Source: a virus
IMG/VR virus record: IMGVR_UViG_3300029922_000015
Location: 85,935-149,934 of that record
Reading direction: 5' to 3' (one strand)
Length of the DNA: 64,000 nucleotides
Part shown: in pieces, positions 7,888 to 41,019 of the stretch
Layout of the letters: the number at the start of each line of letters is the position of its first letter
Position numbering within the stretch: position 1 is the stretch's first letter
Notes under the pieces: model-generated
Database searches by the model: none
Seen by the model: only the letters and a program-made list of their open reading frames with translations
Told to the model about the DNA's origin: nothing
Made by a program: the position numbers and the translations under genes

Positions 7888-8559
7888 ATGAAATATATTT
7901 CTAAAATTGGCCTTGAAATCGAGGGAGGATGGTTTTCGACTGAAGACAAGCCGGAAAGTCTTACAAGCTGGCATCACGACGATAGCGTTCGTAACATCCG
8001 CAAAACCCAAAACGGAGTTCCTATTCGTTTTATTGGCGAGGCGGTTTCTATACCCCTCGCGAATTTGAGCGCAGTCCACGAATGGATTAACATTTATTGG
8101 CCCGACCGTAAAAATAAGAGTTGTGGTTTTCACATTCATACTTCGTTCGTTGATCCTAAATTTTATTGGTATCTTGTTAATGAGGATTTTTATATTCAAT
8201 TTTATAAGAAAATGAAAGCGGTAGGCAATAAGCTTCACCTGTCCGCTCATTTCTTTGATAGATTAATGGGCAAGAATGTTCACTGTCAGAAATTATTCAA
8301 GGGCCGCGAACAACTTTACGCTCTAACCAAAACAAATAATCGGTATTCTCAGCTTAATTATTGCTACTCCTTGCACGGCACACTCGAAAATCGTTTGCCT
8401 TGCGCCATTCTTCCCATAAGGAAGGCTCAGCAATACGTTGATGAGTATATTCAATTTATCGAAAATTATTTAGAGGCTCATCCTAAACCCGAGATTACCG
8501 AGTTTAATTGGGAAACAAAAGTTGAAGTCGAAGATGAAAATGAGAAAATTTTGTCTTGA
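7888..8559 (+). CDS. putative amidoligase (COOH-NH2 ligase, Amidoligase_2-like) 1
   Basis: GLEIEG, HDDSV, GEAVS, CGFHIH, RYSQLN, GTLENR motifs. Confidence 0.85.
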   Translation: MKYISKIGLEIEGGWFSTEDKPESLTSWHHDDSVRNIRKTQNGVPIRFIGEAVSIPLANLSAVHEWINIYWPDRKNKSCGFHIHTSFVDPKFYWYLVNEDFYIQFYKKMKAVGNKLHLSAHFFDRLMGKNVHCQKLFKGREQLYALTKTNNRYSQLNYCYSLHGTLENRLPCAILPIRKAQQYVDEYIQFIENYLEAHPKPEITEFNWETKVEVEDENEKILS

Positions 8560-8596
8560 CAATTAACGAAACAAGTGATATAATCTTAAAAAATCT

Positions 8597-9301
8597 ATGT
8601 GCCTCATTATTTATTCAAAAAGCGGTCGTCCTAAGCAAGAGTATATCGAAAATGGAGAAGCCTCCAATGACGATGGAACGGGTATCGCGTGGATTGAAAA
8701 TGGTTACTTGCGATATATCAAAGGAATCGATTTGAAGGAAACGATTAAGCTTTCTCAAGAATTGCCGCTAGGATATATTATACATTTTCGGATGGCCTCC
8801 ATTGGTGGAGTAGACCCACAACTTATTCATCCCTTTCCTGTGAATGTACACGTTCCTTTGCAACAAAAGGGCAAAGCTAACAAACTATTGTTTCATAACG
8901 GACATTGGCATTCGTGGAAACAACATTTGATGGATCATCTCAGCCCTAAAGTTATTCTTCCAGAGGGTAAATGGAGCGATACGCGGGCGATTGCTCTTTT
9001 GACGGCGATTCACGGAAAGAACTTTTTGCGGACTATTGCCGACGGACAAGCCGGATGGGCGGGTAAATTCGCTTTGATGACGCCTAGCAAAACTACTTTA
9101 ATCGGTCGTTGGGAAGAAGAAGAAGGAGTATTTTATTCCAATGCTAATTATAAATGGAGCTATCATCGCTCTAATTATAATTATTCTGGATCGGCTAGCG
9201 ATCATAGTTATCACAACGGACTTCGCACGACCCACCAAGATCGTAGTTTATCGCCTCACTCTCAAAGAGAGGCGGAATATTTGCAAGGATATGATCATTA
9301 A
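8597..9301 (+). CDS. class II glutamine amidotransferase (Ntn hydrolase)
   Basis: N-terminal Cys (MCLII), NDDGTGIAW, HFRMASIG, HPF, FHNG, SDT. Confidence 0.9.
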   Translation: MCLIIYSKSGRPKQEYIENGEASNDDGTGIAWIENGYLRYIKGIDLKETIKLSQELPLGYIIHFRMASIGGVDPQLIHPFPVNVHVPLQQKGKANKLLFHNGHWHSWKQHLMDHLSPKVILPEGKWSDTRAIALLTAIHGKNFLRTIADGQAGWAGKFALMTPSKTTLIGRWEEEEGVFYSNANYKWSYHRSNYNYSGSASDHSYHNGLRTTHQDRSLSPHSQREAEYLQGYDH

Positions 9302-9390
9302 AAAAGATCAAAAAGTTCTTGACAAAATGAGCAATAAGTAGTATTATTGTTCAAGTCAGAAAACCAAACAAACAAAAAAGAAAGGCCAAA

Positions 9391-9633
9391 ATGGCACGTA
9401 TTGTTAAACTCGCAGTTCACGACACCGATTCTTACCCTTCTCAGAAGGTTAAGTCGAAGATCGGTAAGACCCTCCTTAAGGGAGCGCAGACCGTCTTTGT
9501 TACCCGCAAAGACCTCGCTACCGTCTTGAAGAGCGGTGCCTTCAAGAAGGCTCCTAAGACCGAAGCGTTCCTTAAGGAACTCAAGGCTTCTGCAAAGAAG
9601 AACGGTGCTTACCACATCAAGCTTTCTGTCTAA
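9391..9633 (+). CDS. small Lys-rich protein
   Basis: 80 aa; own promoter (TTGACA 9319) and terminator; AAG/C-ending codon bias suggests high expression. Confidence 0.75.
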   Translation: MARIVKLAVHDTDSYPSQKVKSKIGKTLLKGAQTVFVTRKDLATVLKSGAFKKAPKTEAFLKELKASAKKNGAYHIKLSV

Positions 9634-9661
9634 TTGACAGATTGTTTGTAAGGTGAACCTT

Positions 9662-9700
9662 AAAAGAGAGTCAACTGATAAAACGGTTGGCTCTCTTTTT
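9662..9700 (+). terminator. rho-independent terminator
   Basis: gagagtcaactg/cggttggctctc stem followed by TTTTT. Confidence 0.85.
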
Positions 9701-9716
9701 CCTTTAGTAGAAGGCT

Positions 9717-10385
9717 ATGAATAAAAGCTCTAAAATAGATCGGGTGGGGGTTGAATTAGAAGGAGGCTGGAAGCAAAACCGCCCTCAACAAAAGCACATG
9801 CATGGCGATAGTTCGGTGGAAATACCGAATTATGAGGAATTTTGTTACGATGAGGATGGGGATTTTGATATGTGCGGCGAAATAGCTAGCTCCCCATTTG
9901 CTAGTTTGCATCATCTTTCTAGATGGATTCGCGAATCTTATCCCGATACAACAAACGCTTCATGCGGTTTGCATATTCATATTAGTACCAAAAAGCAAGA
10001 AGACTATGCGCTGCTTATGCATAAGAAATTTTATAATATATTCCTTGTCGCAATGGAAAAATGGGGACAACGGCATTGTTCCTCTAGATCGAGCGAGGAT
10101 CGTTCCTTTTGGGCTCGTTTTAAAGGAAATAATGATTTTTGCGTAAGAGAACATTATCCTATCAGCCAAATTAAAGGTCAAGATGATAAATATACCCAAT
10201 TAAATTTTTGCTCATGGCGAGAACATCGGACATTAGAATGTCGTTTGTTTCCAGCTTTTAAAACGGTGGATAAGAGTATTTCGGGCACGGCTTTCTTTAT
10301 AAGACTTGTCGATAATTATCTTCGGACAATGAAACCTAACGATTACACAAAAAAATACTTGCAAATTATTAATCCTAGAGTATAA
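9717..10385 (+). CDS. putative amidoligase 2
   Basis: GVELEG, HGDSSV, GEIAS, CGLHIH, KYTQLN, TLECR. Confidence 0.85.
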   Translation: MNKSSKIDRVGVELEGGWKQNRPQQKHMHGDSSVEIPNYEEFCYDEDGDFDMCGEIASSPFASLHHLSRWIRESYPDTTNASCGLHIHISTKKQEDYALLMHKKFYNIFLVAMEKWGQRHCSSRSSEDRSFWARFKGNNDFCVREHYPISQIKGQDDKYTQLNFCSWREHRTLECRLFPAFKTVDKSISGTAFFIRLVDNYLRTMKPNDYTKKYLQIINPRV

Positions 10386-10780
10386 TGAGTTGGATGAAAT
10401 ATCTAAACGAGAACGAAGACGAGATGATCGCCCGTTTATTGGACGAATCTATAGATAACGGATTCGAACATCCTCAGTATGCTTTTGAAGTAGAAGACGA
10501 AACGGATTTTCAAACAATTTTTCAAAATGCGTCCGATGAGACAATTATCGATGGGGAATATACTGTCATTGAAGATTCGGATGAAATAGAAATTTCGCCC
10601 GATATGGATTTAAGGCCGGAAAGAGAACGGCATCGTTGTAAACTTAAACTAGGGAAGATACCTTATAATGTGGCTTGGACTAACGGGTTCTATCATAAAA
10701 GAGGAGGGAAAATCCTTTACAAAAAGGGCTCCCGTATGCGAAAAGCTTTCGAAGCGGGTAGAAGCGCGGGGAGCCAATAG
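10385..10780 (+). CDS. hypothetical protein (acidic N-terminus, basic C-terminus)
   Basis: 131 aa, overlaps the stop of amidoligase 2. Confidence 0.65.
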   Translation: MSWMKYLNENEDEMIARLLDESIDNGFEHPQYAFEVEDETDFQTIFQNASDETIIDGEYTVIEDSDEIEISPDMDLRPERERHRCKLKLGKIPYNVAWTNGFYHKRGGKILYKKGSRMRKAFEAGRSAGSQ

Positions 10781-10860
10781 ATATCGTATTCATTACGATA
10801 ATAAGAAGAAAAAGAAGGAAGATCGTTTTCTTGAAATGAATTTTCTACTAAAAAATCCCC

Positions 10861-11103
10861 ATGTCGCCAAAAATTTTATTTGATAATACTAAAGACGTGG
10901 AAGCTATTTCCACCAAACTTTTAGAGCCAAGTTCTGATGATTTAAAATTCATGGCTTCGAGATTTTCTAAAGAACAATGGGAAATCCTTTGCGCTTCTTC
11001 TAATTTCATGGATATGCTTTATAATGATTTTAATCGTTCTCGGTTTTTGGCTGAAAAAATCCTAGCGGGAAGAGGAGACACGATAAACGCGCAAAATAAA
11101 TGA
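10861..11103 (+). CDS. hypothetical protein
   Basis: 80-aa ORF. Confidence 0.6.
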   Translation: MSPKILFDNTKDVEAISTKLLEPSSDDLKFMASRFSKEQWEILCASSNFMDMLYNDFNRSRFLAEKILAGRGDTINAQNK

Positions 11104-11537
11104 AGTCTTTTAATATTATTCCCGTTTCTCTATTTTCCCTCTATTGTGATTATCTTTGCAATTGGAGTGAGGGCCATTTATGTCGGGCGACGATAGAATA
11201 TATTAACTTGACTTGTTCTGATTATGCAATCGGCTATGCGGCTCACGACGAAACGGGGCCAGTTTCGATTTCTATAGCCTCCAAAACCTTTCCTTTCGCC
11301 GCCATCGCTACCAGACCGGATAAAAGAGGCCAAGGGCTTGCTAAAAAGGTTCTAAAACAAACGATTAATCACTTTCGTTTAGCTGGTTTGGTTTATGAAA
11401 CTTGGGTAGCGGCGGATAATCCTAGTTCTATTGTCTTGTTAGAAAGCGTGGGCTTGAGAAAAGTAAGAGAAGAGACGAAAAACCGGAGAAGTACCGGAGA
11501 ATATTTAGCTTTTAAATATTCTTCAAAAAACACTTGA
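11100..11537 (+). CDS. GNAT family acetyltransferase
   Basis: Motif A IATRPDKRGQGLAKKVL; VAADNPSSIVLLESVGL. Confidence 0.85.
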   Translation: MKSFNIIPVSLFSLYCDYLCNWSEGHLCRATIEYINLTCSDYAIGYAAHDETGPVSISIASKTFPFAAIATRPDKRGQGLAKKVLKQTINHFRLAGLVYETWVAADNPSSIVLLESVGLRKVREETKNRRSTGEYLAFKYSSKNT

Positions 11538-11595
11538 CTTTTGGTTAAAGATGAGTTATTATGTATTCGAACAATAAAGGCGTAAATAAAATATT

Positions 11596-11796
11596 ATGAG
11601 AAGTCGCGAAATTAAAATGAATGCTCTCTATGATTGCGAGGGGGTTATCTGCCGAGCTAAGAAGCAATTGAAGAATGGGCGTTTTTTGGTGACTCACCAT
11701 AAGTCGTTTCATTCTATTGTTGAGCCTGTCAAGCTAAAGCGTATAGGTGCAAAACGTATCCAGTCTTATTTGAGAGAAGTCGGAGTAGATATTTAA
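11596..11796 (+). CDS. hypothetical protein
   Basis: 66 aa, promoter at 11535. Confidence 0.6.
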   Translation: MRSREIKMNALYDCEGVICRAKKQLKNGRFLVTHHKSFHSIVEPVKLKRIGAKRIQSYLREVGVDI

Positions 11797-11873
11797 TTTG
11801 TTAGTTAGCAAACTAACTGGTGGAGGCGGCGGGTTGACTCGCTCCTAGATGGGCTGCGCATATCTAAAACGCA

Positions 11874-12143
11874 ATGGAACGAATAATTAAACCTTCTCAT
11901 GGAACTTACAGGGGATGTCCTATGTATCGGTTCTACGGAGACTATGTAAAAGGTCGTTGGATAGGCAGATATACTCGTCTTTATCCACAAGCTCTTGAGT
12001 CAATGCCTAACATTTATTTTCTTCCCGAAGTCGTTATTAAAGGTATTGCTATTTGTTGGCCGTTTATAAAAGAAAACGGGGACAACTATACTCCCCTTAG
12101 ATATGTAGAACCAAAAAATTCTATTTCTCTGTCTCCTAAATGA
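11874..12143 (+). CDS. hypothetical protein (FYG...W-P family)
   Basis: Paralogous to 12140..12427 (FYGD...WP...PL.Y). Confidence 0.65.
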   Translation: MERIIKPSHGTYRGCPMYRFYGDYVKGRWIGRYTRLYPQALESMPNIYFLPEVVIKGIAICWPFIKENGDNYTPLRYVEPKNSISLSPK

Positions 12144-12427
12144 CTTTAACAAAGCTATTTATTAAACCCCGGCGGATACCTTTACAAATGCATATCCATA
12201 ATTTCTATGGAGATTTGGATAAGGGTTATTTTAAGCTTTATGAACGATATTTTTGCAAATCGTTTGCTTTAGAAAGAGAAGCGGAAGGATTTCGTTCGAT
12301 TGTTTGGAAAATAGTTCCAATGGAGTTTAGAAATAATCCTAATTTAATTTTAGCGTGGCCTTATCACAGAGATAAGCGAGGTAATTTTATTCCTTTACAA
12401 TATTGCGAAACGATAATTAGTGCTTGA
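12140..12427 (+). CDS. hypothetical protein (FYG...W-P family)
   Basis: Paralogous to 11874..12143. Confidence 0.65.
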   Translation: MTLTKLFIKPRRIPLQMHIHNFYGDLDKGYFKLYERYFCKSFALEREAEGFRSIVWKIVPMEFRNNPNLILAWPYHRDKRGNFIPLQYCETIISA

Positions 12428-12458
12428 CACGCGACGAATCCTTTGATAACATATTTTT

Positions 12459-12935
12459 ATGCGATATATTGCCGACGTTCAGTATAAGTATGATCCGATT
12501 ACTAATAAGGCGTCACTTTATCTTTATTCTCCGACAATAGCGGCGATGTATGAAGAAATCGGTTTCGACACTCGCAACTACGAGTCGGAAAGATATGAGC
12601 TTTTAGAATCTCTTTCTGCTTATTTAGTTAGAGGAATTTCAATTGAAAATGAACATCGATTCGAGCGGCGCGGCACGAAATACACAGTTTTTACGCAAAA
12701 ATGCGCTAATTGTAATCTTTTGATTGAGTGTGATGGGGGATGGGGAGTAAATATTTCCCATATTCGAGGAGTTCTTATTGGTAAGGGTTTCAGTTATAAA
12801 ATAAAGCCATTGCCCGTTGCGAAAACGGAAGCGGTTTTGATAGCTTATAGCGAAGGGGTTCGCGAGTATTATCGCGCTCTTAAAAGCCATTTAGATTTAA
12901 AAAGAAAATACGATAAAGTTCTTGACAAAGAATAA
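12459..12935 (+). CDS. hypothetical protein, divergent member of the amidoligase-partner family
   Basis: 158 aa; weak similarity to 7386 and 12958 in the C-terminal half; promoter 12424. Confidence 0.55.
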   Translation: MRYIADVQYKYDPITNKASLYLYSPTIAAMYEEIGFDTRNYESERYELLESLSAYLVRGISIENEHRFERRGTKYTVFTQKCANCNLLIECDGGWGVNISHIRGVLIGKGFSYKIKPLPVAKTEAVLIAYSEGVREYYRALKSHLDLKRKYDKVLDKE

Positions 12936-12957
12936 AACATAGAATAAGATCATAACA

Positions 12958-13476
12958 ATGAGTAATAGCACTTTCGAGATTAAACGGACTCCCGATGGAA
13001 CGTTGATTACGATTCAAGCCCCATCCGTGGAAAGAATTTTTCGATCCCTCGCTCGCGAAGCCCGAAATCCTCTGGCCCTAAGCGGAATCAATGTCGATTG
13101 CTGGTGGGGCGATCAAACCGACCGATTCGTTCGTAACATGAGCGAAATTTTTGTTCACGAAGCGACCGTTTTGAATAAAAGTAAAACGGGGGTGAAAGAG
13201 GAAGATTTGGTAGTTCCTACTTGTCGTTCTGATTATCTTTTTCAAAATAATAATGTCGGGGTTCGTTTACTAATGAGCCGAGGCATCTCTGAGAAAAAGC
13301 AATTTTTGATTCCCGGCATGTTTTCTACCGATACCATTCAAAAGGTGGCGTTGGGTTATAAAAAGGCCATGAGCTATCTTATTAAGGAAGCGGGTAAAGA
13401 AGTTGTTTATAAGTTTCAAATTGCTGAGCCCGATGACGCCGAAAAGACTCAGGTTCTTGAATTCACTAATATCTAA
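12958..13476 (+). CDS. amidoligase-associated hypothetical protein (partner family, copy 2)
   Basis: Paralogue of 7386..7886; stop overlaps the start of amidoligase 3. Confidence 0.7.
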   Translation: MSNSTFEIKRTPDGTLITIQAPSVERIFRSLAREARNPLALSGINVDCWWGDQTDRFVRNMSEIFVHEATVLNKSKTGVKEEDLVVPTCRSDYLFQNNNVGVRLLMSRGISEKKQFLIPGMFSTDTIQKVALGYKKAMSYLIKEAGKEVVYKFQIAEPDDAEKTQVLEFTNI

Positions 13477-14186
13477 TGTTTCGTCATATCTCTAAAATTG
13501 GCCTTGAAATAGAAGGCGGATGGTTTACGGATAAGCGTCCCGTTGATTTTAAGCACGATAGTAGTGTGCGTTTTCATCGCCGAGACTTTAAAGTAAGAGG
13601 AAAAGAACAAACGCGCCGAATTGATTTGGGCGAAGTAGCTTCCCGTCCTTTGGAATCAATCGCGGAGTGTGCTAATTGGATTAAGACTTATTGGCCCGAC
13701 AAGAAAAATGGAACGTGTGGCTTTCACATTCATATTTCGTTGAAGAATAAACTTCTTTATTCGTATTTGATGGACAAAGAATTCAATGAAGCTTTTTTGC
13801 ATTCCGCGCTTATGTTTGGACGAGCCCATAGGATGTCTCGCGATTTTTTCCATCGTTTAGAGGGTAAGAATCGTTATTGTAAGAAAATGTTTAAGCCGGA
13901 AGAACAATTGTACTTTCAGCATAATCACCAATATACCGAAAACAATCCTCGCTACGCTCAATTAAATTATTGTTTTTCGACTCATGGAACGGTTGAAAAT
14001 CGTCTTCCTACAGGAGCAATGCCGAAGGGAAAAGCTATTCGCACAGTAGAATGGTATGTAGATTTGGTAGAATCTTACCTTGATAAAAAAGAAGATAAGC
14101 CTATTTTGGTTCAAGTCGAAGGGTCTGACGAAGAAACCGAAGAAATAGACTTGACAAACTATGAATTTGGAGTAAATAAATCTTGA
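13476..14186 (+). CDS. putative amidoligase 3
   Basis: GLEIEG, HDSSV, GEVAS, CGFHIH, RYAQLN, GTVENR; closest to amidoligase 1. Confidence 0.85.
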   Translation: MFRHISKIGLEIEGGWFTDKRPVDFKHDSSVRFHRRDFKVRGKEQTRRIDLGEVASRPLESIAECANWIKTYWPDKKNGTCGFHIHISLKNKLLYSYLMDKEFNEAFLHSALMFGRAHRMSRDFFHRLEGKNRYCKKMFKPEEQLYFQHNHQYTENNPRYAQLNYCFSTHGTVENRLPTGAMPKGKAIRTVEWYVDLVESYLDKKEDKPILVQVEGSDEETEEIDLTNYEFGVNKS

Positions 14187-14231
14187 CAAATTTTGGATTT
14201 TGGCTTATACTGTAGGAGAACTAAAAAATAT

Positions 14232-15047
14232 ATGTGTTTGATAATTGCAAGTAGAACTGGTCGTCCGAAAGAGGAATATATCCGAAACGGATTCGCGAAT
14301 CATCCCGATGGAACTGGTATCGCGTGGTTCGAAAAAGACGGCGTTCATTATAAAAAGGGCTTGACCGTCGAAGAAACGATTACAATGTCCAAGGAATTGC
14401 CCGTTGGATACGTCATTCATTTTAGATGGGCGTCCGTAGGCGGAAAGGATAAGTCTTTGATCCACCCCTTTCCGATTTCAAAAGATGTTATTTTGCGTCC
14501 CGAAGGAACAGCGAAGTCTGTTTTGTTTCATAACGGTCATTGGGATAGTTGGAATAATGTTTTAGTTAATCACCTTTCATCCCGTTTGGTTTTGCCCACT
14601 GGAAAATGGAGCGATACGCGGGCGATTGCCTTTCTTGTATCTATTCACGGTACTCCATTCCTAAATTTGCTAGACGTTGGCAAGTTTATTGTGATGGCGA
14701 ATGGGAAGCAGTACGCTTTCGGAGATTTTCAGGAAGAAGATGGGGTTTATTACTCTAACAGTTCTCACAAAAATTTTATCCGAGGGGGTTGCGGAACTGG
14801 ATTGAACAATGGAACTTCGCGAGTCGGTACGGCATACGAGCCGATTACGCCTCGATCAACCAGACCGCCAATTTCTCAGCCGTCTCAACCTTTGTTAGGT
14901 GATACCCAAAGAATTACTCCACAAAGTAAGGTGGGCGCGGAAGAGCGCCGCGTTCTATCGGCGGAAGAGTTTCAAGAGCTTCGCGAATATTTTGAAAAGG
15001 ATTTAAATAGTAATCCTATTTCCGTTTCCGCGACAGGGGGAGCTTAA
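14232..15047 (+). CDS. class II glutamine amidotransferase with disordered C-terminal tail
   Basis: Start at ATG 14232 gives an N-terminal Cys (MCLIIAS); NHPDGTGIAW, HFRWASVG, HPF, FHNG, SDT. Confidence 0.9.
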   Translation: MCLIIASRTGRPKEEYIRNGFANHPDGTGIAWFEKDGVHYKKGLTVEETITMSKELPVGYVIHFRWASVGGKDKSLIHPFPISKDVILRPEGTAKSVLFHNGHWDSWNNVLVNHLSSRLVLPTGKWSDTRAIAFLVSIHGTPFLNLLDVGKFIVMANGKQYAFGDFQEEDGVYYSNSSHKNFIRGGCGTGLNNGTSRVGTAYEPITPRSTRPPISQPSQPLLGDTQRITPQSKVGAEERRVLSAEEFQELREYFEKDLNSNPISVSATGGA

Positions 15048-15540: not shown

Positions 15541-15541
15541 T

Positions 15542-20546: not shown

Positions 20547-21197
20547 ATGCTTAGCAATTTTAAATACATTGATAAGGTCGGGTGCGAGCTTGAAGGGGCT
20601 TTTTTAAATATTCCCGATCCCGATAACAAATTCCTCGACCACGTAAAAGGAGAAGGAATGTCAATTTCTCCCGAGGAAAGGGCTATTATCAACGAAAAGA
20701 AACTTGTTGTTGGTGAGCGAAATAGCGAACCCTATAAAGCCCTTCTTCCCTTGCGCAAATGGGTGCGAAAGTTCTGGCCGGAAGTTGTAAATAATTCCAA
20801 CGGCTTTCACGTTCACGTTTCGTTTAAAGACCCTTCCGTTCGCTCAACAATCGTTGCGTCCGCCGACTTCCATCGAACCTTTATCGAAGAATGCAAGAAA
20901 TTTGTTCTTTCGCCAAAGTATCGTTTTAGTAAGAGCGTAATTGATAGGGCGGCTCATAATATTTATGGTCATCATTATCATTCCACCGGAGACAGGCGTT
21001 CGGGCGTGACTCCTTTTGCGGATTATGATACCAGTGAATTTCGTATTTTCTCCGGCGATATGACAGCGAAGCAAGCAAACCTTTGTTTGACTTGGCTTGT
21101 ATCGTTTATTGAGAATTACTTTGAGGAACATGAACAAGCAACTGTTTGTGATAAGGCGCGGGTTGTTTATCACTCCTTCTCGGGACAACAAATCTAA
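20547..21197 (+). CDS. putative amidoligase 4 (divergent)
   Basis: GCELEG, GERNS, NGFHVH, TSEFRIF. Confidence 0.75.
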   Translation: MLSNFKYIDKVGCELEGAFLNIPDPDNKFLDHVKGEGMSISPEERAIINEKKLVVGERNSEPYKALLPLRKWVRKFWPEVVNNSNGFHVHVSFKDPSVRSTIVASADFHRTFIEECKKFVLSPKYRFSKSVIDRAAHNIYGHHYHSTGDRRSGVTPFADYDTSEFRIFSGDMTAKQANLCLTWLVSFIENYFEEHEQATVCDKARVVYHSFSGQQI

Positions 21198-21234: not shown

Positions 21235-21483
21235 ATGGACAGACCTTTTAAAGTTGGCGATTACGTTCGAATCATCGCGCCGCATTCTGCGATCCAGAAG
21301 CACTATAATAAATTGAAGTTTACCGAGAAGGGCAAGATGCTCCTTTCTAAAGACGAAATAGCGGCACAGATTGGTATCATCAAGAACAACGAGAGCGGCG
21401 AGCTAAGAATCGCGCCCATCATTCATGGCGTTTTGGCCGATTGGACTATCGGTTGTTATGATAATGAAATTACTTTGGTATGA
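21235..21483 (+). CDS. hypothetical protein (SH3/KOW-like FKVGDYVRI)
   Basis: 82 aa, promoter 21201. Confidence 0.55.
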   Translation: MDRPFKVGDYVRIIAPHSAIQKHYNKLKFTEKGKMLLSKDEIAAQIGIIKNNESGELRIAPIIHGVLADWTIGCYDNEITLV

Positions 21484-22064
21484 GCAAATCTAGAAAAAGA
21501 TACATTAATGCAATGGGCTGCGAAATGGAGGGTGGATTTCGTTATCCTCTAGGCTATCCTATTTACGGGGAAGGCGTTGATGTACCCGAAGGAGAGATGT
21601 GCATTAATGGCGAAGAACTAGAAGTTAGAGTCGGAGAGGTTCAATCCAAGCCGTTCTTTCGTAAAGATTTACTTAAGCATTGGGTAAAGAGATATTTCCC
21701 TGTTATAACTAACGATGATTGTGGATTTCACATTCACGTTTCCTTCAAACAGGATAATTGGCATGACGCTTTAGCTAACGAAAAGTTTAATAACGATTTT
21801 CTTCGCGATTTGAAGCGTTGGCTTAAGAATAAAAAGGTCAGTAAAGCCTTTCAAGCGCGTCTAGACGATGAAAACGATTATTGCCGACACGAATTTGAAG
21901 GTTTTGAGCGCGGCGCGGTGCATTGTCATTCGGAACACGGAACAATTGAATTTCGTATCTTTTCAATGGTAATTACTCCCAAGCTCGCGCAACAATGCGT
22001 CGATTGGACTTTTAATTACGTTGAACGTTACTTGCATAAACTACTGAAAAATGGAAACTCCTAA
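21480..22064 (+). CDS. putative amidoligase 5
   Basis: GCEMEG, GEVQS, CGFHIH, HGTIEFRIF. Confidence 0.8.
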   Translation: MSKSRKRYINAMGCEMEGGFRYPLGYPIYGEGVDVPEGEMCINGEELEVRVGEVQSKPFFRKDLLKHWVKRYFPVITNDDCGFHIHVSFKQDNWHDALANEKFNNDFLRDLKRWLKNKKVSKAFQARLDDENDYCRHEFEGFERGAVHCHSEHGTIEFRIFSMVITPKLAQQCVDWTFNYVERYLHKLLKNGNS

Positions 22065-23175: not shown

Positions 23176-23913
23176 TTAATTATATTGCCATTTAAATCCC
23201 ATCGCGCTTCTAAGAATATAAGCACCTTGAGCGTTTTTACATATATAGCCTTTGCAGACTTTAGTAATCGCGCTACATTGATTGAACTTTCCAAACGAAT
23301 AAGCTGCTTCTTTAGCAGAGGGCCAGATTTTAATTATTTTCCCTGTTTTTTTATCAATTTGTTGGACAGCCTTAGCCCCAATACCTTTATGAAGTTCGGA
23401 TAATTTTTTCCTTGTTGCTTTAGTATGATGTCTACCGAACATTGGATTATTTTTTCCTGAAAATCTTTGTCGATTTAAATTTCCTATTAATATTTTTGTC
23501 TCCTCGGTGTGTGCTTTACCATAAAAGGGATTTTTTATTCCTTTCATACTTTCGGACATTCTTTGGCGTTCTTTTTTAGAGGCTTTTCTTCCGGTCGTAT
23601 CGTTTGAGAAAGTACATATATTATATCCTATTTTTTGATTAGTAGAATTTAATTTCTTGATCCATTCGGTTTCTATTTTCAATAATTTTTCATTCTCAAT
23701 TTGATCAAAGCTTTCCAAAATGGAAACCTCAAAATTTTCCCAACCATATTTATAAATAGCATAAGATACTGGATGATTTTTTGTAGGAGTTTTTTCATAA
23801 TGTCGATAGCAACGCATTCTTTCACGAATGCGAACCGACTTTCCAACATAAACTTTCCCATTAATTTTGTTAGTTAAAAGGTAGATTCCCGGTTTTGAAG
23901 TTATTTCGCTCAT
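23176..23913 (-). CDS. GIY-YIG homing endonuclease with NUMOD3/NUMOD1 domains (free-standing)
   Basis: GIYLLTNKINGKVYVGKS; NPFYGKAHT and NPMFGRHHT (NUMOD3); C-terminal KIWPSAKEAA...GFKWQY (NUMOD1). Confidence 0.93.
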   Translation of the reverse strand: MSEITSKPGIYLLTNKINGKVYVGKSVRIRERMRCYRHYEKTPTKNHPVSYAIYKYGWENFEVSILESFDQIENEKLLKIETEWIKKLNSTNQKIGYNICTFSNDTTGRKASKKERQRMSESMKGIKNPFYGKAHTEETKILIGNLNRQRFSGKNNPMFGRHHTKATRKKLSELHKGIGAKAVQQIDKKTGKIIKIWPSAKEAAYSFGKFNQCSAITKVCKGYICKNAQGAYILRSAMGFKWQYN

Positions 23914-23993: not shown

Positions 23994-24650
23994 ATGATTG
24001 GGAATAATGTCGATAAAATCGGAGTCGAATTAGAGGGCTATTGGAAGCATAATCCAAGCGGTTTTCGCATTCATGGCGATAGCAGTATAGAGCTAAGCTC
24101 TATTCGCGAGCGCCGTCTTAGGCGAGACAATACCAATCCTCATCCTCGCGGCACCGTTGGCGAAAAATCCAGTCCTGTTTTTGCAACTTTAAACGATCTT
24201 AAGGTTTGGCTATTTCGAGAATATCCTCATCGGCGCAATTTCTCTTGTGGGTTTCATATCAACATTTCACTGTCTAATCCCACTTTGTTGCAGGAGTGCA
24301 ACGTTAGGTATATCCATGATGCAATGATTAAGGCTATTTTGCGTTATGGAAAGATCAAGCGTTTGGGCCGTGCCTTTAAACAACGGGCTACGCCAAGCGC
24401 AGAGTATTCTGATATTCGATACGATAGCCAAGATAAATATCGCGCTATTAATTGGTCTAAAACGTATAATGATACTCCTTATTTGGAATTTAGGATTTTT
24501 TCTCAATCGATGCCGAAAGAAAAGGCGATGAACGCCGTATGTTTTTTGTGCGAGCTTATGAATTTGGTTGCGGAGTTAGTTAAAGATGTTAATATGTCTC
24601 GGGAAGATAGATCAAAGAAGATAATGTTATTTGGTAAGAATTTGCGCTAA
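23994..24650 (+). CDS. putative amidoligase 6
   Basis: GVELEG, HGDSSI, GEKSS, CGFHIN, KYRAIN, LEFRIF. Confidence 0.82.
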   Translation: MIGNNVDKIGVELEGYWKHNPSGFRIHGDSSIELSSIRERRLRRDNTNPHPRGTVGEKSSPVFATLNDLKVWLFREYPHRRNFSCGFHINISLSNPTLLQECNVRYIHDAMIKAILRYGKIKRLGRAFKQRATPSAEYSDIRYDSQDKYRAINWSKTYNDTPYLEFRIFSQSMPKEKAMNAVCFLCELMNLVAELVKDVNMSREDRSKKIMLFGKNLR

Positions 24651-27247: not shown

Positions 27248-27445
27248 ATGAAAGCAACGATATCTGAAGATAAACGAGTTTCTTTGATTCTAGAATCTCA
27301 ATCGGAAGTGGATCAACTTTATGCCTTTTTCAATTCTCCTCGTATTACTCGCGTTCTTAAATTAGACAGTCGGGCATATCAAACATTAGAAACATATACC
27401 AAATTAGACCTTTATAATTATTTATCGAGGATTTTAATAGCATGA
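27248..27445 (+). CDS. tandem paralogue 1/4
   Basis: VSLILESQSEVDQLYAFFN. Confidence 0.7.
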   Translation: MKATISEDKRVSLILESQSEVDQLYAFFNSPRITRVLKLDSRAYQTLETYTKLDLYNYLSRILIA

Positions 27446-27666
27446 AATCGATACAAGAAATTACAATTAATCCGTTTAAGAGGGTGGCGCTTGTTTTTGA
27501 AAGCCCTGAAGAAGTTGATAAAATTTACGCGCTTCTCAATCACGAGAAAATGACGAAAGCGGTTGGCATGGACTTTTCTAAAGTAAAAGATGCCCTTGCT
27601 CCCTATGCGAATCCAACAGAAGCGGCGGCTTGGCACCAACGCTTAAACGTTTTGATAAAAAAATGA
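27442..27666 (+). CDS. tandem paralogue 2/4
   Basis: VALVFESPEEVDKIYALLN. Confidence 0.7.
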   Translation: MKSIQEITINPFKRVALVFESPEEVDKIYALLNHEKMTKAVGMDFSKVKDALAPYANPTEAAAWHQRLNVLIKK

Positions 27667-27920
27667 TTGGCGCGAAACAAAAGATAGCGGGCTCCGACTC
27701 TCCTCTTGTCGCTTTGATTCTGGAAACGCCAGAAGAAATCGAACAAATAGGCGCGTTGATTAGCCGTAAGGTGATTGTCGAAGCTCTCGATTTAAGAAAG
27801 CACGTTCGTTGCAAGGGCGACAATGGGAAATATTTGCCATATCTTTTGTTAGAGCCCTTTTTGCCCAAAGCTGATCTTTTTAATAAAGTTCAAAATAGAC
27901 TCGAACCTTTATTTCAATAA
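27663..27920 (+). CDS. tandem paralogue 3/4
   Basis: ATG 27663; VALILETPEEIEQIGALIS. Confidence 0.7.
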   Translation: MIGAKQKIAGSDSPLVALILETPEEIEQIGALISRKVIVEALDLRKHVRCKGDNGKYLPYLLLEPFLPKADLFNKVQNRLEPLFQ

Positions 27921-28156
27921 TGTTCGCAACTCAAGATTCTAAAACTAAACTTGTTTCTTTGATTTTAGAAAGTCAATCGGAAGTAGACACGATGGGGATG
28001 TTTTTTAATAATCTAAGAATAGCTCAAACACTCGGATTGCGAACAAGTGATGGCGTTTGGCTTTACGGTAAATTATTTCATGCTTTTTGTACGGGGCGAG
28101 CTTATACTATAGCGGGGGATAGTCCAAGTTCAAGATTAAATAAACTTATTTACTAA
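27920..28156 (+). CDS. tandem paralogue 4/4
   Basis: VSLILESQSEVDTMGMFFN. Confidence 0.7.
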   Translation: MFATQDSKTKLVSLILESQSEVDTMGMFFNNLRIAQTLGLRTSDGVWLYGKLFHAFCTGRAYTIAGDSPSSRLNKLIY

Positions 28157-31848: not shown

Positions 31849-32100
31849 ATGCGTCCAGAATTAGTTTATCCTTCCGAAGAAAATCCGGTTTATTGTCATG
31901 ATTGCAAGGAACATATCAGGGAAAATGATTTGTTTGGACGTTTTCGCGGCCAATGGACTATTTTGTATTGCGCTAAGTGTTTCGGTACTTATTGCGACAA
32001 AGAAATGGATTATAATCATCCAGAGATTGTTAAATTGATGGAAATGAAACTAAACTCTAATCGGCGTTACACAGAGGAAGATTTAATAAAGAAATATTAA
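31849..32100 (+). CDS. zinc-finger protein
   Basis: CHDC...CAKC. Confidence 0.55.
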   Translation: MRPELVYPSEENPVYCHDCKEHIRENDLFGRFRGQWTILYCAKCFGTYCDKEMDYNHPEIVKLMEMKLNSNRRYTEEDLIKKY

Positions 32101-32143: not shown

Positions 32144-32896
32144 ATGAACTCGAAAATCCGCTTTGGAGTTGAAATTGAAGGGGGATGGAAAAACGCCTCT
32201 AAAATTACTTCTCTCATCAAAGATGACGGATCGGTTATTATACCGGAATACTCTTCCCTCTATTCCATTTTCACGGGGCGCGGACATCTTACTCCAAGAG
32301 AAAAAGCCCAAATTATTAAAGCAAAACCTAGCAATCTTTGTGGTGAGGTAGCGAGTCCGGTTTTCAATACGTTGCCTCAATTCAAACGGTGGACTCGGCG
32401 CGTTTATCCCGACGCCACAAACGCTACTTGTGGTTTGCATATCCATGTTTCTTTCCCCCGTCTTATAGATTATGCGACATTAATGACACGCAGTTTTAAT
32501 AGTCGCTTTTTGTCAGAAATAAATCGGTTTGGAGAGAATTTTGTTGATAAAGACGAAGCGATGGCCAAAATTTATTGGGATCGTTTCTTTAACAAAAATA
32601 GTTATTCTTTAAAAAAGTTCTGCCCTCTTGGAACTTTGCAAAACGATGCGGGACATAAATATCGTTTCATTAATTACGGAGCTTTTACTTATACTGATAG
32701 AAAGCGAACGTTCGAATGTCGGTCTTTTCCGGCTTTTAATCAGCGAGGATTGGCGGAAAAGGCCGTTGAATTGTTTTTGAAATTGTGTGAGGATTATATC
32801 GCGGAATTTGCTAATCCCGAAGACCCGGAAATCGTGTTGAATATGCAAGTCCTCAAAAGGTATCTTTCACCCGATGAGTCTTTAAATAAGGAATAA
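32144..32896 (+). CDS. putative amidoligase 7
   Basis: FGVEIEG, DDGSV, GEVASP, CGLHIHVS, KYRFIN, TFECR. Confidence 0.88.
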   Translation: MNSKIRFGVEIEGGWKNASKITSLIKDDGSVIIPEYSSLYSIFTGRGHLTPREKAQIIKAKPSNLCGEVASPVFNTLPQFKRWTRRVYPDATNATCGLHIHVSFPRLIDYATLMTRSFNSRFLSEINRFGENFVDKDEAMAKIYWDRFFNKNSYSLKKFCPLGTLQNDAGHKYRFINYGAFTYTDRKRTFECRSFPAFNQRGLAEKAVELFLKLCEDYIAEFANPEDPEIVLNMQVLKRYLSPDESLNKE

Positions 32897-35741: not shown

Positions 35742-35776
35742 GGGATATAGGCGGGAGTAACTAACGCCTATATTTT
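35742..35776 (+). promoter_or_regulatory. GRRGTRACTAA-loop hairpin (copy 1), possibly also a terminator
   Basis: atataggcg-GGAGTAACTAA-cgcctatat followed by a T-run. Confidence 0.6.
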
Positions 35777-38235
35777 CCGTAAAATTACTTGATTTTTCGC
35801 TCAAGTAGTGCTATAATCTCTTCATGCGTAAAACTAAAAGTTTAGGCCGAATTACCGATTTGGGTTATTCGGTTTACCAGAGCGATGATAGATGGTCGCT
35901 CGAAAAGAATGGTAAAGCCTGTGATGTCGCGCCTTGTGGCGCTACGCAATCCCAAGCCGTCAAACAGTTTATGGATTACCTTAGAATAAAATAATTATGA
36001 AAGTTGAAATTGCAAATCGAGAGTTTTTTATTGATGCGTTGCGTAAGGCTCGGACAAAGGCTGTCGCGAAAGCTAAAAGTGATCTGAAATTCTATCAAGA
36101 TAATCTAGCCGATAAAAAAGCTAAGGCGAAGAAATGGTTTTCGGGCGTTGGCGATTGGGAAGTTAGGTTTGGCGAGTCATACGTTCAAGACGCGGTTAAT
36201 GCCGTTACGGACTCAGAAAAGCTTTTGTCGCATCTCGAAACCGTTTTGCTCAGCAAGAATACGGGAACGGTTTACTTGGAAAACGAAGAAATTACCCTGC
36301 TAGCTCCATTTATTAAGTAACCTATGGAGATTACAGGACGATATGCTCCCAATGAAAATAGTTTGCGCAATCAATCTATTTTCTATCTAAACAATGGGGT
36401 TAAAGCTACTGTCGAAGAAACGGCGGTGTTAGGTCGCATAATCGTTCAACTTGAAGACGGTTTGGGGTATTGGACTAATCTGAATGGGTTGAAAAATCTG
36501 CCCTTACGCTTTCAATTCGCTAGGGCTTGGGAAGATAAAGATAAGAATGTTTTGCGTCCATTGTTTTCAAGAATCTATCCTAATCCCGGTTGCGAAGGAC
36601 TTATGCTCGCGGGCGAAGTGCGCGATTTGTATCGGGGTCGAGAATGGATTGAATAATGAATGTCGAACCTCCTATAACAAAATCTATTTCCAAAAAACAG
36701 TTACTTAAGGAATCAATCGATAAAAGAGATTCCATTGCGCGTTTTAAGATCGGGCTGACTGTTATGTCTTTTCAAGAATTAGATGAATCGGAGATGAGTT
36801 TTCTGAAAATTCCTTTAATAATGAAAAGCTTGGACGATTGGCTGGATTTTTTGAACGAACAAGTCGAAAAAGGTATTGACAAGTCATAAACCGTATAATA
36901 CAATTATCGCATGGCTAGAATTATAGTTTATATTATGATGACCGCCTCTTGGATTATGATCGTCGGCGGCGCGATTATAATGCTTGTCAGTTGTGGTTTT
37001 TGTATCAAAGATATTCTATATGTGCTCACCAGACTCTAAACAATTCTATCTGAATTATTGCGCGGGATTGGTTGTTTTAGACCCGATTGGCGAAGATATT
37101 TACTTTTTTGAGCCTTGCATTAAGCATAAGAACGCAACAATCTTTAGTATCAATATGATTTTGGGATTTTATGAGCGATGGAAAGGCGTGCCCGAGATAA
37201 TCAATTCTCTTCGCGTTTTTAATATGCCAATTGAATTGTTTATTCAGCAATTAAAATAAATTTGACAAACAAGAGTTGGTTTCCGATTAACGCTCGCAAA
37301 ATCGTCTGTGATCAAGGAACATAGAGCAATCTATTAATCATTAAAAAGTGGCGTGGGAGAAAATTCGTAGCATTTTCGTTTGTACCACTAAACTCTGTAG
37401 ATAAAGAATTCCTTTCATCCAAGAAAATAACAGGAATCGATATCAAAATGTCCAAAGTTGAGATGGAGATTCAATAATGACCGCGAGCCTTGTTTGTTCA
37501 GATTGCCAAGAAAAGGTTATTGAAACGATGGTCGGCAAGCCCGCATCTAAAGCTTTCTATTGTCCGTTTTGTGATGATTTTGTCAGACCTAAAAAGAGCT
37601 TGACATCGAACGAAACCGAACCTATAAAGGAATAATGGCTGATAATTATTTTATGGTTTACCGAGCGAAACCTCCCTTTGAGGTATTTAAAGGGGTGCGG
37701 TTTGGGCGCGTTGATTACGCTGGTGCTTCGCACAATCAACAAGATTGCGAGCGATTAGTTACGGCTTTGAACGGCGGCAAACCTAGGGGTTTTAAAGCCA
37801 ACGTCACTAGCGCGGCGCTCAAGATTCTCCAAAAGAACTTGGAGAACGTTTTGTTTGAGCCCGCGAAGGTATTTCCGCCCGATGGCATCGCAAAGATTCC
37901 CGATGTTTTTACCGTGACTTACGATTCGCTTATTGATGAATTGCAGGAGGTTTACACATGATTATTGTTATAGTAATGTTGGTTATTATTAACATCGCAT
38001 TCGTTTTGTTGGTAAGTGAAAGCCAGAGCGAGGTAAAGCATTTGAAGGCATTGAACGAATCTTATAAAGATTATAATCAAATTTGGCGCGATTTAGCTGA
38101 GCAACGATTAGATACCATCGCGAAAAGAAACTTTGAAATTGTTAAATTAATTAGAAAGTTGCAAAAATATGGATTGGATAAAGAAAAGTGAAAATTTCTC
38201 TTGACACGACATAAATCGTATGCGATGATGTTATC

Positions 38236-38467
38236 CACACGCTAGACAAAAGGAGAATCCATCATGAAGTAAACTAACATCATTATAAGCAACGGTTAAG
38301 AGATTATGAGATTGTAGGCAGTAACTTAAAGAACTAGATAAGGATACAATGAAGCCTCCGTAGCTATAAAACAAATTTAAGATTAAAGATAGAGTATAAT
38401 GAAAAGTTAGTTGGTTAGTTGTTGAGACGCGCTGTTGGAATTCCGAGCCAATGGCGCGTCTCTTGTT
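38236..38467 (+). ncRNA. candidate small RNA carrying an SD-ATG-AAG-TAA minigene
   Basis: Promoter 38201, long-range stem aactaac..tcattata/tataatga..gttagtt, 15-bp terminal hairpin 38424-38462. Confidence 0.5.
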
Positions 38468-40296
38468 AAAGAAATTTATGGATAGTGTTTATCAAATTTT
38501 AGACGTGGAATTTAATCGCAAGAATGGATTTCGCAAGGGGATAGGCCAATATTTTCGAGTCGCGCCTCAATATGCTCACGTTCTAGTGGTTCAAGCGCAA
38601 TCGGCGCACGGTCGCATCTATAATGATTGGGCCGAATTTAAGGCGGATAACGAAAGTAGTTTTAATTAAAATTTTATGCCCAAAACTTCGCTGTCCCTAA
38701 TTAAAAGGATTGGCGAGTTTCGGGCTCTCTTTAGAAAACAATAATGAATAATCCAAACCCTCAATATTATGTGGCTGTTGCTCAAGCGGATATCGGATTT
38801 ACGTTGAAGATCATTGTAAATCTAACAACGAGAACTGCGAGGATTTTTTCTTTAGAACAAGCTGTCAAAGAATGTCGGGCGCAACAACGGTCGGGCGTTG
38901 TCGCAACTTATCTTCCGGTTGTATAATATGAATGATCTTGCTAAATCATTAGAGAAGCTAATCAAGATGATAGGCGAAAAGACTTGGGTTGATGGATATG
39001 AACTTAGATCGGGAATTCACGGAGATGAAGTTTGGGCTAATAAACAAGAAGCCAGCGATTTCTTTGAAGCCGAAAAGAATTTAAAAGATTATCTTGACAA
39101 TCAATAGATCGTATATTATTATAACGATATGGAAAATGCTTCCCTTCTTAATGCCAGCGATAAGAGATGGCTTCCGTCTTTTCAAGAAACGGCTGAGCGT
39201 TTGGGCGTCGAATATCAAATCTCAATCGAGCCTTACGAGGATAATTATAATCTAACTATTCGTTTTGAGTTGAATGGTATGAAGCACACAGAAGTTAATT
39301 TCAAGCAGGCTACCGAAGAACTGGAAGATTGGGCCGATGGATATCATTCGCGTAAGATTGAAGCAGAAGCCTATCGGCGAGATGAGCTAGAAGCGTTTGG
39401 CGATATGGCAAGCGAATTCGCTGAGCCCGAACCAGAACATCCCGAATTTTAATTTATGAGCTTAAAAAGAGACATAAAAAAAGTTTATCGCAAGGTAAAA
39501 CGCGCAATAAAAAAGGTAGATAATCAAAACTCTTTGGAGTTTGCTTTGCTGAAACTTCAATTGCGTAATTTGGAAAGGATGATGTAATGCGAAACATTCC
39601 CCGATTTGTTTGTAGTTTGCTTAATCACGATTATATACGGATAGACTACAATTCTAAACATCATCGTCATATCGAGCTTTGTAAATGTTGCGGCGATAGG
39701 CGCATCTCCATGAATTTCAGCGAGTTAATTAAAATGGATTTGACGCCAAAGAATTAGCTTGACATCTTCTTAATTTAAGGTTATTCTAATTTTAACATGA
39801 ATCTTATTGTTTGGCTTTGTCTGTTTCCGATTTGTTGGTCGCTTTGTAATTTTATTGACGCTCTTCGTTATACAATTATAGGCGTCGAAGTGGATAATAA
39901 AAGCACCTATGCTATAGCGGTCGGAATTGACGTGTTGATTTTTTTCGTAATTTATTTCACTGTGGCTTTTCATCTAGCATGAAACAATTTCTAGTCATTC
40001 AAAACAAGGAAAAGTATCCTTGGCTCAAGGGACATAAATCGCCGCCGGACGAATACCAAACGCCTTCGATTGGCGTTTACGTTCCTCAGTGGAAAGAATA
40101 TTTGCTTAGAGTTGACGGCTCGGACGAAGAATATCGCACGCAGGAACAAATTGAAGAGAAATACGGGGAAACACATACTGTTTTTTATTTTGATTCCCTA
40201 ACGGAATTAGCCAAAGAATTTATAACGCAAGGTTGGAAAGAATACGTTGACGATAAAGCAAACGATTTTAATATTACGCATCAAGATTAATAAAAT

Positions 40297-41019
40297 ATGA
40301 GCACATTCAAAGCCGTGGGAATTGAAATTGAAGGGGGATGGAAGAACGTAGAACGAGTAGCTAAATGGTTTAAAAGCGATTCGAGCGCCGTTGTGCCGGG
40401 GTATCAACATGTTCATAATCTTCATAAAGGGGATTACTTGATCAATCCTCCTAAAACGCCTGTTAGCGGAGAAGTTAATAGCGAGCCTTATGCTCAAACA
40501 GGCTCATTACACAGTTGGATTGAACGCGCTCATCCCGATGGCGTAGCCGACACTTGCGGCGTTCACATTCATACTTCTTTTAATACTTTGACGGATTATG
40601 CTAAGATTATGACGGAAACGTTTTATAATCGCCTAACTGCCCGTATGATGCGTTTTGGGAATGAAGAGGTAAACGGTAAGGATGCGGCGGAAACATCGTT
40701 CTGGCGGCGTTTTTGGGGTTTTAACGGCTATTCTCAGCGCGGGTTCGTCCATGTTCTTTATGGAAATAAGAATTGGGGCGTTAATTACGGAGCTTTTAGA
40801 GGGGATAACGAAGGGCTTCGTAAATATAAAACGTTTGAAATGAGAATCTTTCCTTCGTTTGCGCGGGCCGAAACAACGCACAAAGGGGTCGAAGCTTATC
40901 TCGAAGTGATTAACGAAACCTTAAACGAGCACCCGCCTTTTCAGCCAGAGATTGAAGTGGCTTTGAAAAATCTAAAAGGTTTACATTCCGATGTAGCTAG
41001 GTTGATTCCCGAAAAATAA
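40297..41019 (+). CDS. putative amidoligase 8
   Basis: GIEIEG, SDSSAV, GEVNS, CGVHIHTS, TFEMRIF. Confidence 0.82.
   Translation: MSTFKAVGIEIEGGWKNVERVAKWFKSDSSAVVPGYQHVHNLHKGDYLINPPKTPVSGEVNSEPYAQTGSLHSWIERAHPDGVADTCGVHIHTSFNTLTDYAKIMTETFYNRLTARMMRFGNEEVNGKDAAETSFWRRFWGFNGYSQRGFVHVLYGNKNWGVNYGAFRGDNEGLRKYKTFEMRIFPSFARAETTHKGVEAYLEVINETLNEHPPFQPEIEVALKNLKGLHSDVARLIPEK

Follow-up and report, generated by a model that had tools for sequence, protein, structure and literature searches.

The DNA analysed here, the final 64 kb of the linear IMG/VR virus record IMGVR_UViG_3300029922_000015 (149,934 bp, ~39% G+C), carries eight diverged genes for putative carboxylate-amine ligases, together with two genes for class II glutamine amidotransferases (GATases) and two genes of a protein family, designated X. 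This 64-kb stretch is referred to as the window, and positions refer to it unless another sequence is named. The explanation that we favour, with moderate confidence, is an old, lineage-specific expansion of a minimal carboxylate-amine ligase of the glutamine synthetase (GS) fold, in which a three-gene cassette (X, ligase and GATase) was duplicated and six further ligases were retained as orphans, the paralogues probably being made early, acting on host molecules and differing in their acceptor substrates. The record represents a large uncultured phage, near-identical DNA of which is present in peat metagenome runs of several studies. Its completeness is estimated at ~75%, and the genome-wide absences given below hold for that part. 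When 20 kb of the window was compared by megablast with 50,697 GenBank phage records, no relatives at the DNA level were found.

The eight ligase copies and their predicted fold

The eight ligases are encoded on the + strand by open reading frames (ORFs) at 7888–8559 (copy 1, 223 aa), 9717–10385 (copy 2, 222 aa), 13476–14186 (copy 3, 236 aa), 20547–21197 (copy 4, 216 aa), 21480–22064 (copy 5, 194 aa), 23994–24650 (copy 6, 218 aa), 32144–32896 (copy 7, 250 aa), and 40297–41019 (copy 8, 240 aa), none of which contains an internal stop or a frameshift. The proteins are alignable over their full length and are 22–45% identical in pairs (BLASTP E-values of 7e-6 to 1e-54), and a profile of the eight finds exactly 8 matches in the 149,934-bp record, the next match having an E-value of 0.06. 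Invariant residues in the eight-copy alignment are (in copy 1 numbering) G8, E10, E12, and G13; G50, E51, and S54; G80, H82, and S86; R125; and E167 and R169. In an alignment of 27 sequences (the eight copies and their orthologues), 13 residues are invariant, namely (in copy 3 numbering) G9, E11, E13, G14, G52, E53, S56, P74, H84, S88, R127, E174, and R176. A preliminary description of the window had reported eight intact ORFs that keep the motifs GxExE, GExxS, (C/N)GxHxH/N, and ExR and diverge strongly elsewhere; the coordinates, the motifs and the divergence were all reproduced, and an invariant Arg can be added to the motifs.

The paralogues diverge most in two places, namely the insert that separates the D-x-S motif from the G-E-x-x-S motif and the stretch following the conserved Arg. 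Several motif positions have also changed. Copies 4 and 5 have GEG in place of D-x-S, which is kept by >90% of the family, copy 6 has H-I-N instead of H-I-H, and copy 4 has N-G instead of C-G. The GEG and HIN replacements, already pointed out in the preliminary description, were seen again in the alignment. Because orthologues in other phages have the same motif changes as copies 4 and 6, these changes appear to be fixed features and not signs of decay.

In a protein scan, the Pfam family Amidoligase_2 (PF12224; gathering threshold, 22 bits) was matched by copy 3 with 24.9 bits, by copies 2, 6, and 4 with 21.5, 21.9, and 20.3 bits, respectively, and by copies 5 and 7 with 17.3 and 16.2 bits, respectively. 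Copies 2, 3, and 6 scored 22.0–24.6 bits against PF12224 in a six-frame search. The same family was matched at E ≤ 1e-3 by 48 of 106 aligned subfamily members, and no other Pfam family was matched. PHROGs gave weak amidoligase matches for copies 3 and 6, and NCBIfam gave nothing for nine of 10 proteins, X included, and for copy 6 a single row at chance level (E = 0.006). Searched against 1.84 billion representatives, the ligase family profile found 645 clusters (50% identity) at E ≤ 1e-30 and 3,118 at E ≤ 1e-3; no subfamily member was found by tblastn in the 50,697 GenBank phage records, with copy 3 and a mainstream family member as queries. The search thus identifies a large metagenome-only subfamily that is scarcely recognised by family libraries.

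The fold was predicted with an AlphaFold model of copy 3, which was built on the family alignment and has a predicted local distance difference test score (pLDDT) of 92. Residues E11, E13, E53, H84, R127, E174, and R176 sit on predicted strands of this model. Among 48,161 PDB representatives, the top 19 structural matches are all GS, glutamate-cysteine ligase (GCL), YbdK, PafA, or Dop (Z-scores of 7.3–9.8 and root-mean-square deviations of 3.1–5.5 Å, with 147–178 aligned residues), and the next matches are unrelated folds with a Z-score of 5.4. Foldseek returned only weak GS/GCS2 rows from the PDB, and the family profile found nothing meaningful among PDB sequences. Among predicted viral structures (BFVD), copy 3 has 26 matches at E ≤ 1e-3; all named ones among the first 25 are phage ‘amidoligases’, and the matched proteins are mostly 250–700 aa long. 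The resemblance to GS, GCL, and YbdK (GCS2) lies in the fold of the catalytic domain (Z-scores of 7.3–9.8 over 154–178 residues); the phage ligases differ from these enzymes in consisting of the catalytic core only, without the N-terminal beta-grasp domain, and sequence identity to them is 11–17%. On the basis of the model, the ligases are a divergent, minimal-core (194–250 aa) branch of the phage Amidoligase_2 family with a predicted GS/GCL fold. The preliminary description had likewise proposed amidoligases of the GS/GCS fold and had considered the loss of catalytic geometry in most copies as a counter-argument; all eight keep catalytic-type residues.

A three-gene cassette of X, ligase, and GATase

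GATase 1 (234 aa; 8597–9301, + strand) and GATase 2 (271 aa from its M-C start; 14232–15047, + strand) are 54% identical to one another. For GATase 2, the TTG at position 14193 is merely the first start in frame; the ATG that gives M-C was taken as the true start, as expected of an N-terminal nucleophile (Ntn) enzyme, and a promoter-like site closely precedes it. The M-C start is present in both proteins and in all 11 relatives, and C2, R65, N101-G102, and D128 are invariant in the 13 members. In class II GATases, the Asn-Gly pair forms the oxyanion hole, and the Arg and Asp hold glutamine. The model of GATase 1 (pLDDT of 83, with the last 45 residues disordered) was matched by Foldseek to the glutaminase domain of GlmS, PurF, and EgtC (E-values of 9e-7 to 2e-4; probability of 1.0), and the family profile matches PurF (E = 0.004) with the Arg, Asn-Gly, and Asp motifs aligned. 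Pfam GATase_6 was matched by five of the 13 proteins (best E-value, 5e-6) and GATase_4 by three, the two window proteins having no match at E ≤ 0.1. In the 50,697 GenBank phage records, tblastn with the GATase found only weak matches (26–34% identity) in nine records, eight of which are Bifidobacterium phages.

Both GATases stand alone, each consisting of a ~185-aa GAT domain and a low-confidence, disordered tail, with no fused acceptor (synthase) domain that would receive ammonia through a channel; no other part of the cassette varies as much as this tail. According to the model and the conserved residues, they are stand-alone class II amidotransferase domains predicted to keep the residues for handling free glutamine or a γ-glutamyl group, in agreement with the preliminary description, which had listed two class II GATases. 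In some relatives (L005, 9433–10776; L006, 10774–11664), the cassette GATase carries a long C-terminal extension with Cys-x-x-Cys pairs that is zinc-ribbon-like.

A first pattern scan of IMG/VR yielded 11 viral loci, in 10 of which the GATase gene lies downstream of the ligase gene, mostly directly. Clustering of the neighbouring genes revealed family X (~150–200 aa; 14–16 members), which is always located directly upstream of the ligase gene and often overlaps it. In the window, X1 (166 aa, no known family; 7386–7886, + strand) ends with a stop codon that abuts the start of copy 1, and its paralogue X2 (172 aa; 12958–13476, + strand) lies directly upstream of copy 3. The window therefore contains two complete X–ligase–GATase cassettes (7386–9301 and 12958–15047) and six orphan ligases. 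The preliminary description had treated the eight copies as dispersed equivalents; this applies to the six orphans, but copies 1 and 3 belong to a duplicated cassette. From these gene arrangements, the three-gene cassette appears to be the ancestral unit and the six orphans appear to be derived.

Family X gave no match in Pfam (14 members searched), in a profile search of the PDB, or in NCBIfam, nor a usable one in the ESM Atlas (pLDDT of the Atlas model, 0.34). The family has no invariant residue and its C-termini are variable; the lack of invariant residues is best explained by a non-enzymatic role. Just upstream of X2, a 158-aa ORF (12459–12935, + strand) contains a short motif like the best conserved one of X at the same relative position. 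Its orthologue in a 171.5-kb relative of the phage matches the X profile (E = 1.5e-5), and the hhalign probability for membership of the window ORF in X is only 1.4%; this ORF may be a very diverged X paralogue. A 131-aa ORF of no known family (10385–10780, + strand), the start of which overlaps the stop of copy 2, forms a pair with copy 2 that is kept in two relatives. As a candidate X member it was rejected (hhalign probability, 0.2%).

The constant adjacency and frequent overlap of X and ligase genes, together with one natural ligase–X fusion protein (P0065; X domain, E = 5e-13) and the presence of PafA and Dop among the structural matches (Z-scores of 8.1–8.4), raise the question of Pup-like tagging, in which X or another small protein would be ligated via its carboxylate to host lysines and the Ntn GATase would serve as a deamidase or de-conjugase. 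PafA and Dop share the fold and provide a precedent for a protein-modifying GS-like ligase that is paired with a deamidating step. In the phage, however, a Pup-like tag ending in a conserved Gly-Gly-Gln/Glu was not found, and the partner hydrolase is a Cys-Ntn GATase, not a PafA paralogue. In addition, X has neither an invariant residue nor a conserved C-terminus, no C-terminal peptide is common to the 117 called + strand ORFs of the block in which the ligase genes lie, and six of the ligases lack X. We therefore regard tagging of this kind as unlikely.

The pairing of an amidoligase with a class II GATase is a long-known, biochemically uncharacterised phage module, found in phiEco32, LUZ24-like phages, and OM43 phages (PMC3890496, PMC10580990). 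The phiEco32/LUZ24-type module is credited, via PMC10580990 and PMC3890496, to Iyer, Abhiman, Burroughs and Aravind (2009). The window resembles this module in having an Amidoligase_2-type ligase beside a stand-alone class II GATase, on the + strand and among genes of the kind that PMC10580990 and PMC3890496 call early. It differs in that the ligase is about half the usual size (194–250 aa vs 250–700 aa for the BFVD matches), in the presence of the partner X, and in the number of ligase copies (eight vs one or two). The parallel with phiEco32 drawn in the preliminary description thus holds for the adjacency of ligase and GATase, but a PF14395 (COOH-NH2_lig) ligase, an ATP-grasp protein of the RimK type (PF08443), and GGACT (PF06094) gave no match in the record at E ≤ 1, the search being confined to these families and not extended to other ATP-grasp families. 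EgtA/EgtC and PuuA/PuuD, which serve in γ-glutamylation and de-glutamylation, also combine a GS/GCL-fold ligase with a stand-alone amidotransferase-like hydrolase, and EgtC matches the phage GATase (E = 5e-5; template modelling score, ~0.5). The resemblance is architectural only: no other enzymes of these pathways are linked to the phage genes, and PuuD is a class I enzyme. Besides the missing families, the window stands apart by its minimal ligase and its X partner and, above all, by a panel of six to eight conserved paralogues that are mostly orphans.

Copy number, orthologues, and selection

A single ligase was found in 12 of 13 other viral records, with a full cassette wherever the neighbouring genes could be read. 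G001, a complete and unrelated 121-kb phage that shares only 14 genes with the present record, contains five ligases, which are arranged as three full cassettes and two orphans. Its gene content suggests that this expansion is independent of the one described here. Both phages contain several X–ligase–GATase cassettes plus orphan ligases, but the present lineage has 6–8 copies, mostly orphans, and these make up three old subgroups that have orthologues in several phages. The preliminary description knew of no described system with this copy number. The expansion is, however, not confined to this genome, since relatives carry at least six copies and the unrelated G001 carries five.

For every copy, the most similar protein comes from a different sample and not from among the paralogues of the same genome. 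Related metagenomic phages contain individual orthologues (40–63% identity) of seven of the eight copies, for the most part with gene order conserved. Orthologues were found in one sample of copy 1 (63%, L021), GATase 1, copy 2 (58%, L021), and copy 3 (53%), with their small neighbours; a second contains orthologues of copies 4 (42%, L022) and 6 (51%), and a third those of copies 7 (43%, L025) and 8 (47%, L024). The 171.5-kb relative is colinear with the window (40–70% protein identity) and carries orthologues of copies 1 (60%), 2 (49%), 3, 4 (41%), 6, and 7 (40%), both GATases, and both X proteins. The orthologues of copy 6 (51–53%) share its H-x-N motif. For copy 5, no syntenic orthologue was found, its best relative being P0015 with 40% identity. 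The 59-kb portion of the 171.5-kb relative that was covered contains no orthologue of copy 5 or copy 8; these may lie elsewhere in it.

In a maximum-likelihood tree of 123 family members, copies 1 and 3 fall inside the mainstream, cassette-linked family (support of 96 in the Shimodaira–Hasegawa-like approximate likelihood ratio test, SH-aLRT). Copies 2, 7, and 8 form a second group (86), in which copies 7 and 8 are sisters (99), and copies 4, 5, and 6 make up a third (88). Apart from copy 5, each copy pairs with its syntenic orthologue.

In conservation, the ligase genes rank near the top of the block. In the orthologue pairs, the proportion of nonsynonymous differences (pN) is 0.26–0.39 and that of synonymous differences (pS) is 0.72–0.86 and saturated, so that only the inequality is usable and no numeric dN/dS is given. 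A variant contig in the peat population differs from copy 1 at seven positions, all seven of which are synonymous third positions, in a region spanning the C-G-x-H-x-H-x-S motif. The contigs of four peat runs are ≥99% identical to the window, with eight differences in total, which are too few for a population pN/pS of each gene.

Because individual copies have their own orthologues in other phages, the panel is probably old, and the orthologue pairs compared appear to be under purifying selection. The existence of orthologues and a pN well below the saturated pS argue for non-redundant roles and against neutral decay, the latter having been named in the preliminary description as a possible objection. 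If the copies were redundant or decaying duplicates without distinct roles, retained by chance in a large genome, the departures of copies 4, 5, and 6 from near-invariant positions (D-x-S, C-G, and the second His) might be read as a first sign of it. However, the departures of copies 4 and 6 are common to their orthologues in other phages, all eight copies keep the 13 invariant residues without frameshifts or stops, and seven copies have orthologues of 40–63% identity despite saturated synonymous sites. Chance retention of this kind is most improbable.

The distribution of the copies also bears on the possibility that the eight ligases serve one pathway, acting successively or as hetero-oligomers on a single product such as a poly-γ-glutamyl or peptide chain, with X as a carrier and the GATases trimming or amidating the product. 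GS-family enzymes are established to be oligomeric, only two GATases and two X proteins are available for eight ligases, and orphans co-occur with complete cassettes in both expanded genomes, all of which would suit such a pathway. The copies, however, are spread over 33 kb amid unrelated small ORFs and do not form a single operon, and relatives hold different subsets (six copies in the 171.5-kb relative, the covered portion of which lacks copies 5 and 8), which fits independent functions better. A single pathway is thus rather unlikely, and the expansion into separate functions remains our preferred reading.

The relatives also differ from the window in the genes between and around the ligases. 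In the 171.5-kb relative (L030, 19970–20564; L032), the orthologues of two ORFs, one just ahead of copy 7 in the window (31849–32100) and one shortly beyond copy 8 (41214–41579), stand next to each other in this order. At that place the relative thus lacks the 9-kb block delimited by the sister copies 7 and 8, and an orthologue of copy 7 lies 3 kb further on. Relatives that are syntenic to positions 20.0–25.0 kb of the window (L022, L030, and L031) carry, between ligase genes, genes for a phosphoribosyl pyrophosphate (PRPP) synthetase and NAMPT (NAD salvage) and for NADAR, as well as genes for a Ro/TROVE-VWA protein, RlaP, a metallophosphatase, and GGACT, none of which occurs at the corresponding position in the window. 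NAMPT/PRPP synthetase, NADAR, Ro/TROVE, RlaP, and GGACT proteins have functions of the kind that serve phages for RNA repair and against the defences of the host.

Genomic setting and proposed role of the panel

The region from 6.1 to 52.7 kb of the window is the block of 117 called + strand ORFs mentioned above, which are small for the most part. Matches to sigma-70-like promoters are in excess (69, compared with 47 ± 6 in shuffled sequences), and perfect or near-perfect sites (11–12 of 12 positions) are located directly 5′ of X1, GATase 1, X2, GATase 2, and copy 4. Those on the + strand before X1 (7351–7379; TTGACA-17-TAATAT, with an extended TG), before GATase 1 (8556–8584; 12/12 consensus), and before GATase 2 (14183–14211; 11/12 match) are examples. 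Such near-consensus host-type promoters suggest transcription by the host polymerase and hence early expression, with which the + strand, small-ORF layout and the promoter excess are consistent.

Outside the ligase genes, the record encodes a DnaE-type polymerase, a DnaB helicase, a TnpB-like protein, ribonucleotide reductase, ThyX, dCMP deaminase, PhoH, several sugar-modifying enzymes, and many homing endonucleases. Among thymidylate-synthesis and related enzymes, the ThyA family includes the dUMP/dCMP hydroxymethylases. This gene content is relevant to a further proposal, that the two kinds of enzyme attach groups to a base of the phage DNA that derives from a hydroxymethyl-pyrimidine. In viral contigs, amidoligase and amidotransferase genes are co-associated with genes for thymidine hypermodification, metavirome clusters pairing them with 5-HMUDK and aGPT-Pplase (Lee et al. 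2021, PMC8989533). The present record, however, has ThyX and dCMP deaminase but no match to the ThyA family (PF00303); TET/JBP oxygenases, which could also supply 5-hmdU, were not searched for by name. Of the 32 Pfam families of 45 larger proteins, the 25 listed include neither the kinase 5-HMUDK nor the transferase aGPT-Pplase, for which no search by name was made. Moreover, the cassettes lie amid small ORFs behind host-type promoters, distant from the replication genes. We consider a role in DNA hypermodification very unlikely.

Several other features of the block and the record were recorded. A GIY-YIG/NUMOD3 homing endonuclease gene (23176–23913, − strand) lies between copies 5 and 6 and has a 38% identical paralogue at another site in the genome (G000:C1, 53633–54343, − strand); five HNH-type endonuclease paralogues, a separate family, are spread over the record. 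Within the GIY-YIG gene, contigs of all four peat runs end on both sides of a 34-bp stretch (23443–23476) with the same foreign continuations, and this stretch looks like a short sequence common to other DNA in the samples. Further small-ORF paralogues are present in the block, namely the pairs 30347–30697/43013–43387 and 42094–42372/42369–42608 (36% and 44% identity), and three to four related ORFs of 65–96 aa follow one another at 27248–28156. The sugar enzymes are encoded upstream of the window (G000:C1, 28256–29464 and 45094–62000) and include a GT9 heptosyltransferase-like protein, GT17 and GT1 proteins, a DegT-type aminotransferase, an FkbM methyltransferase, and a probable NAD-dependent epimerase. 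A protein with a response-regulator receiver domain is also encoded upstream of the window.

Under the preferred reading of an old, lineage-specific expansion, duplication of the cassette in this peat phage lineage would have given rise to copies 1 and 3, and six more ligases would have been kept without an X or GATase of their own. By analogy with GS, GCL, and PafA, each ligase may use ATP to phosphorylate a carboxylate, most likely a glutamate-type γ-carboxylate, and the acyl-phosphate would then be coupled to an amine. The cassette GATase could provide ammonia from glutamine, the net result being amidation, or could trim a γ-glutamyl link in the manner of EgtC. The divergence of the paralogues in the insert and in the post-Arg segment, together with the long retention of each copy, suggests that they accept different substrates. 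The ligases would probably be made early by the host RNA polymerase and would most likely act on host proteins or metabolites and not on phage DNA. The envelope, host proteins, and defence molecules, proposed as targets in the preliminary description, are all still candidates on these data. A more specific proposal is that each ligase places an amide or isopeptide mark (amidation or a γ-glutamyl-type addition) on a different host protein or metabolite, with X as an adaptor and the GATases as ammonia donors or erasers; such a multi-target arsenal is conceivable, though doubtful.

Several points weigh against the preferred reading. In the protein scan, copy 3 alone exceeds the Amidoligase_2 threshold, and for copies 1 and 8 Pfam returned nothing at all. 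The ExE, HxH, and ExR motifs would correspond to the metal and nucleotide ligands E129/E131, H269/H271, and E357/R359 of GS, an assignment made by pattern and spacing and not by superposition. The deep branches of the tree are weakly supported, and the ligase–X fusion is a single protein on a 1,069-bp contig and hence only a hint. Dosage, timing, or heteromer formation could also retain the paralogues. Finally, there are two GATases for all the ligases, and either the orphans act without a GATase or the GATases work in trans.

Eight diverged and individually conserved paralogues of one enzyme are rare in compact phage genomes. If the multi-target arsenal is real, it would represent a new chemistry of host takeover by phages, with a logic comparable to that of phage T4, which has three ADP-ribosyltransferases. 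The amidoligase–GATase cassette has been known from sequence since 2009 and occurs in many phages. The present analysis delimits a minimal catalytic core (~200 aa) and adds X to the cassette as its third conserved member, and the eight conserved versions of the ligase constitute a natural specificity series, the comparison of whose targets could reveal the chemistry of the whole family.

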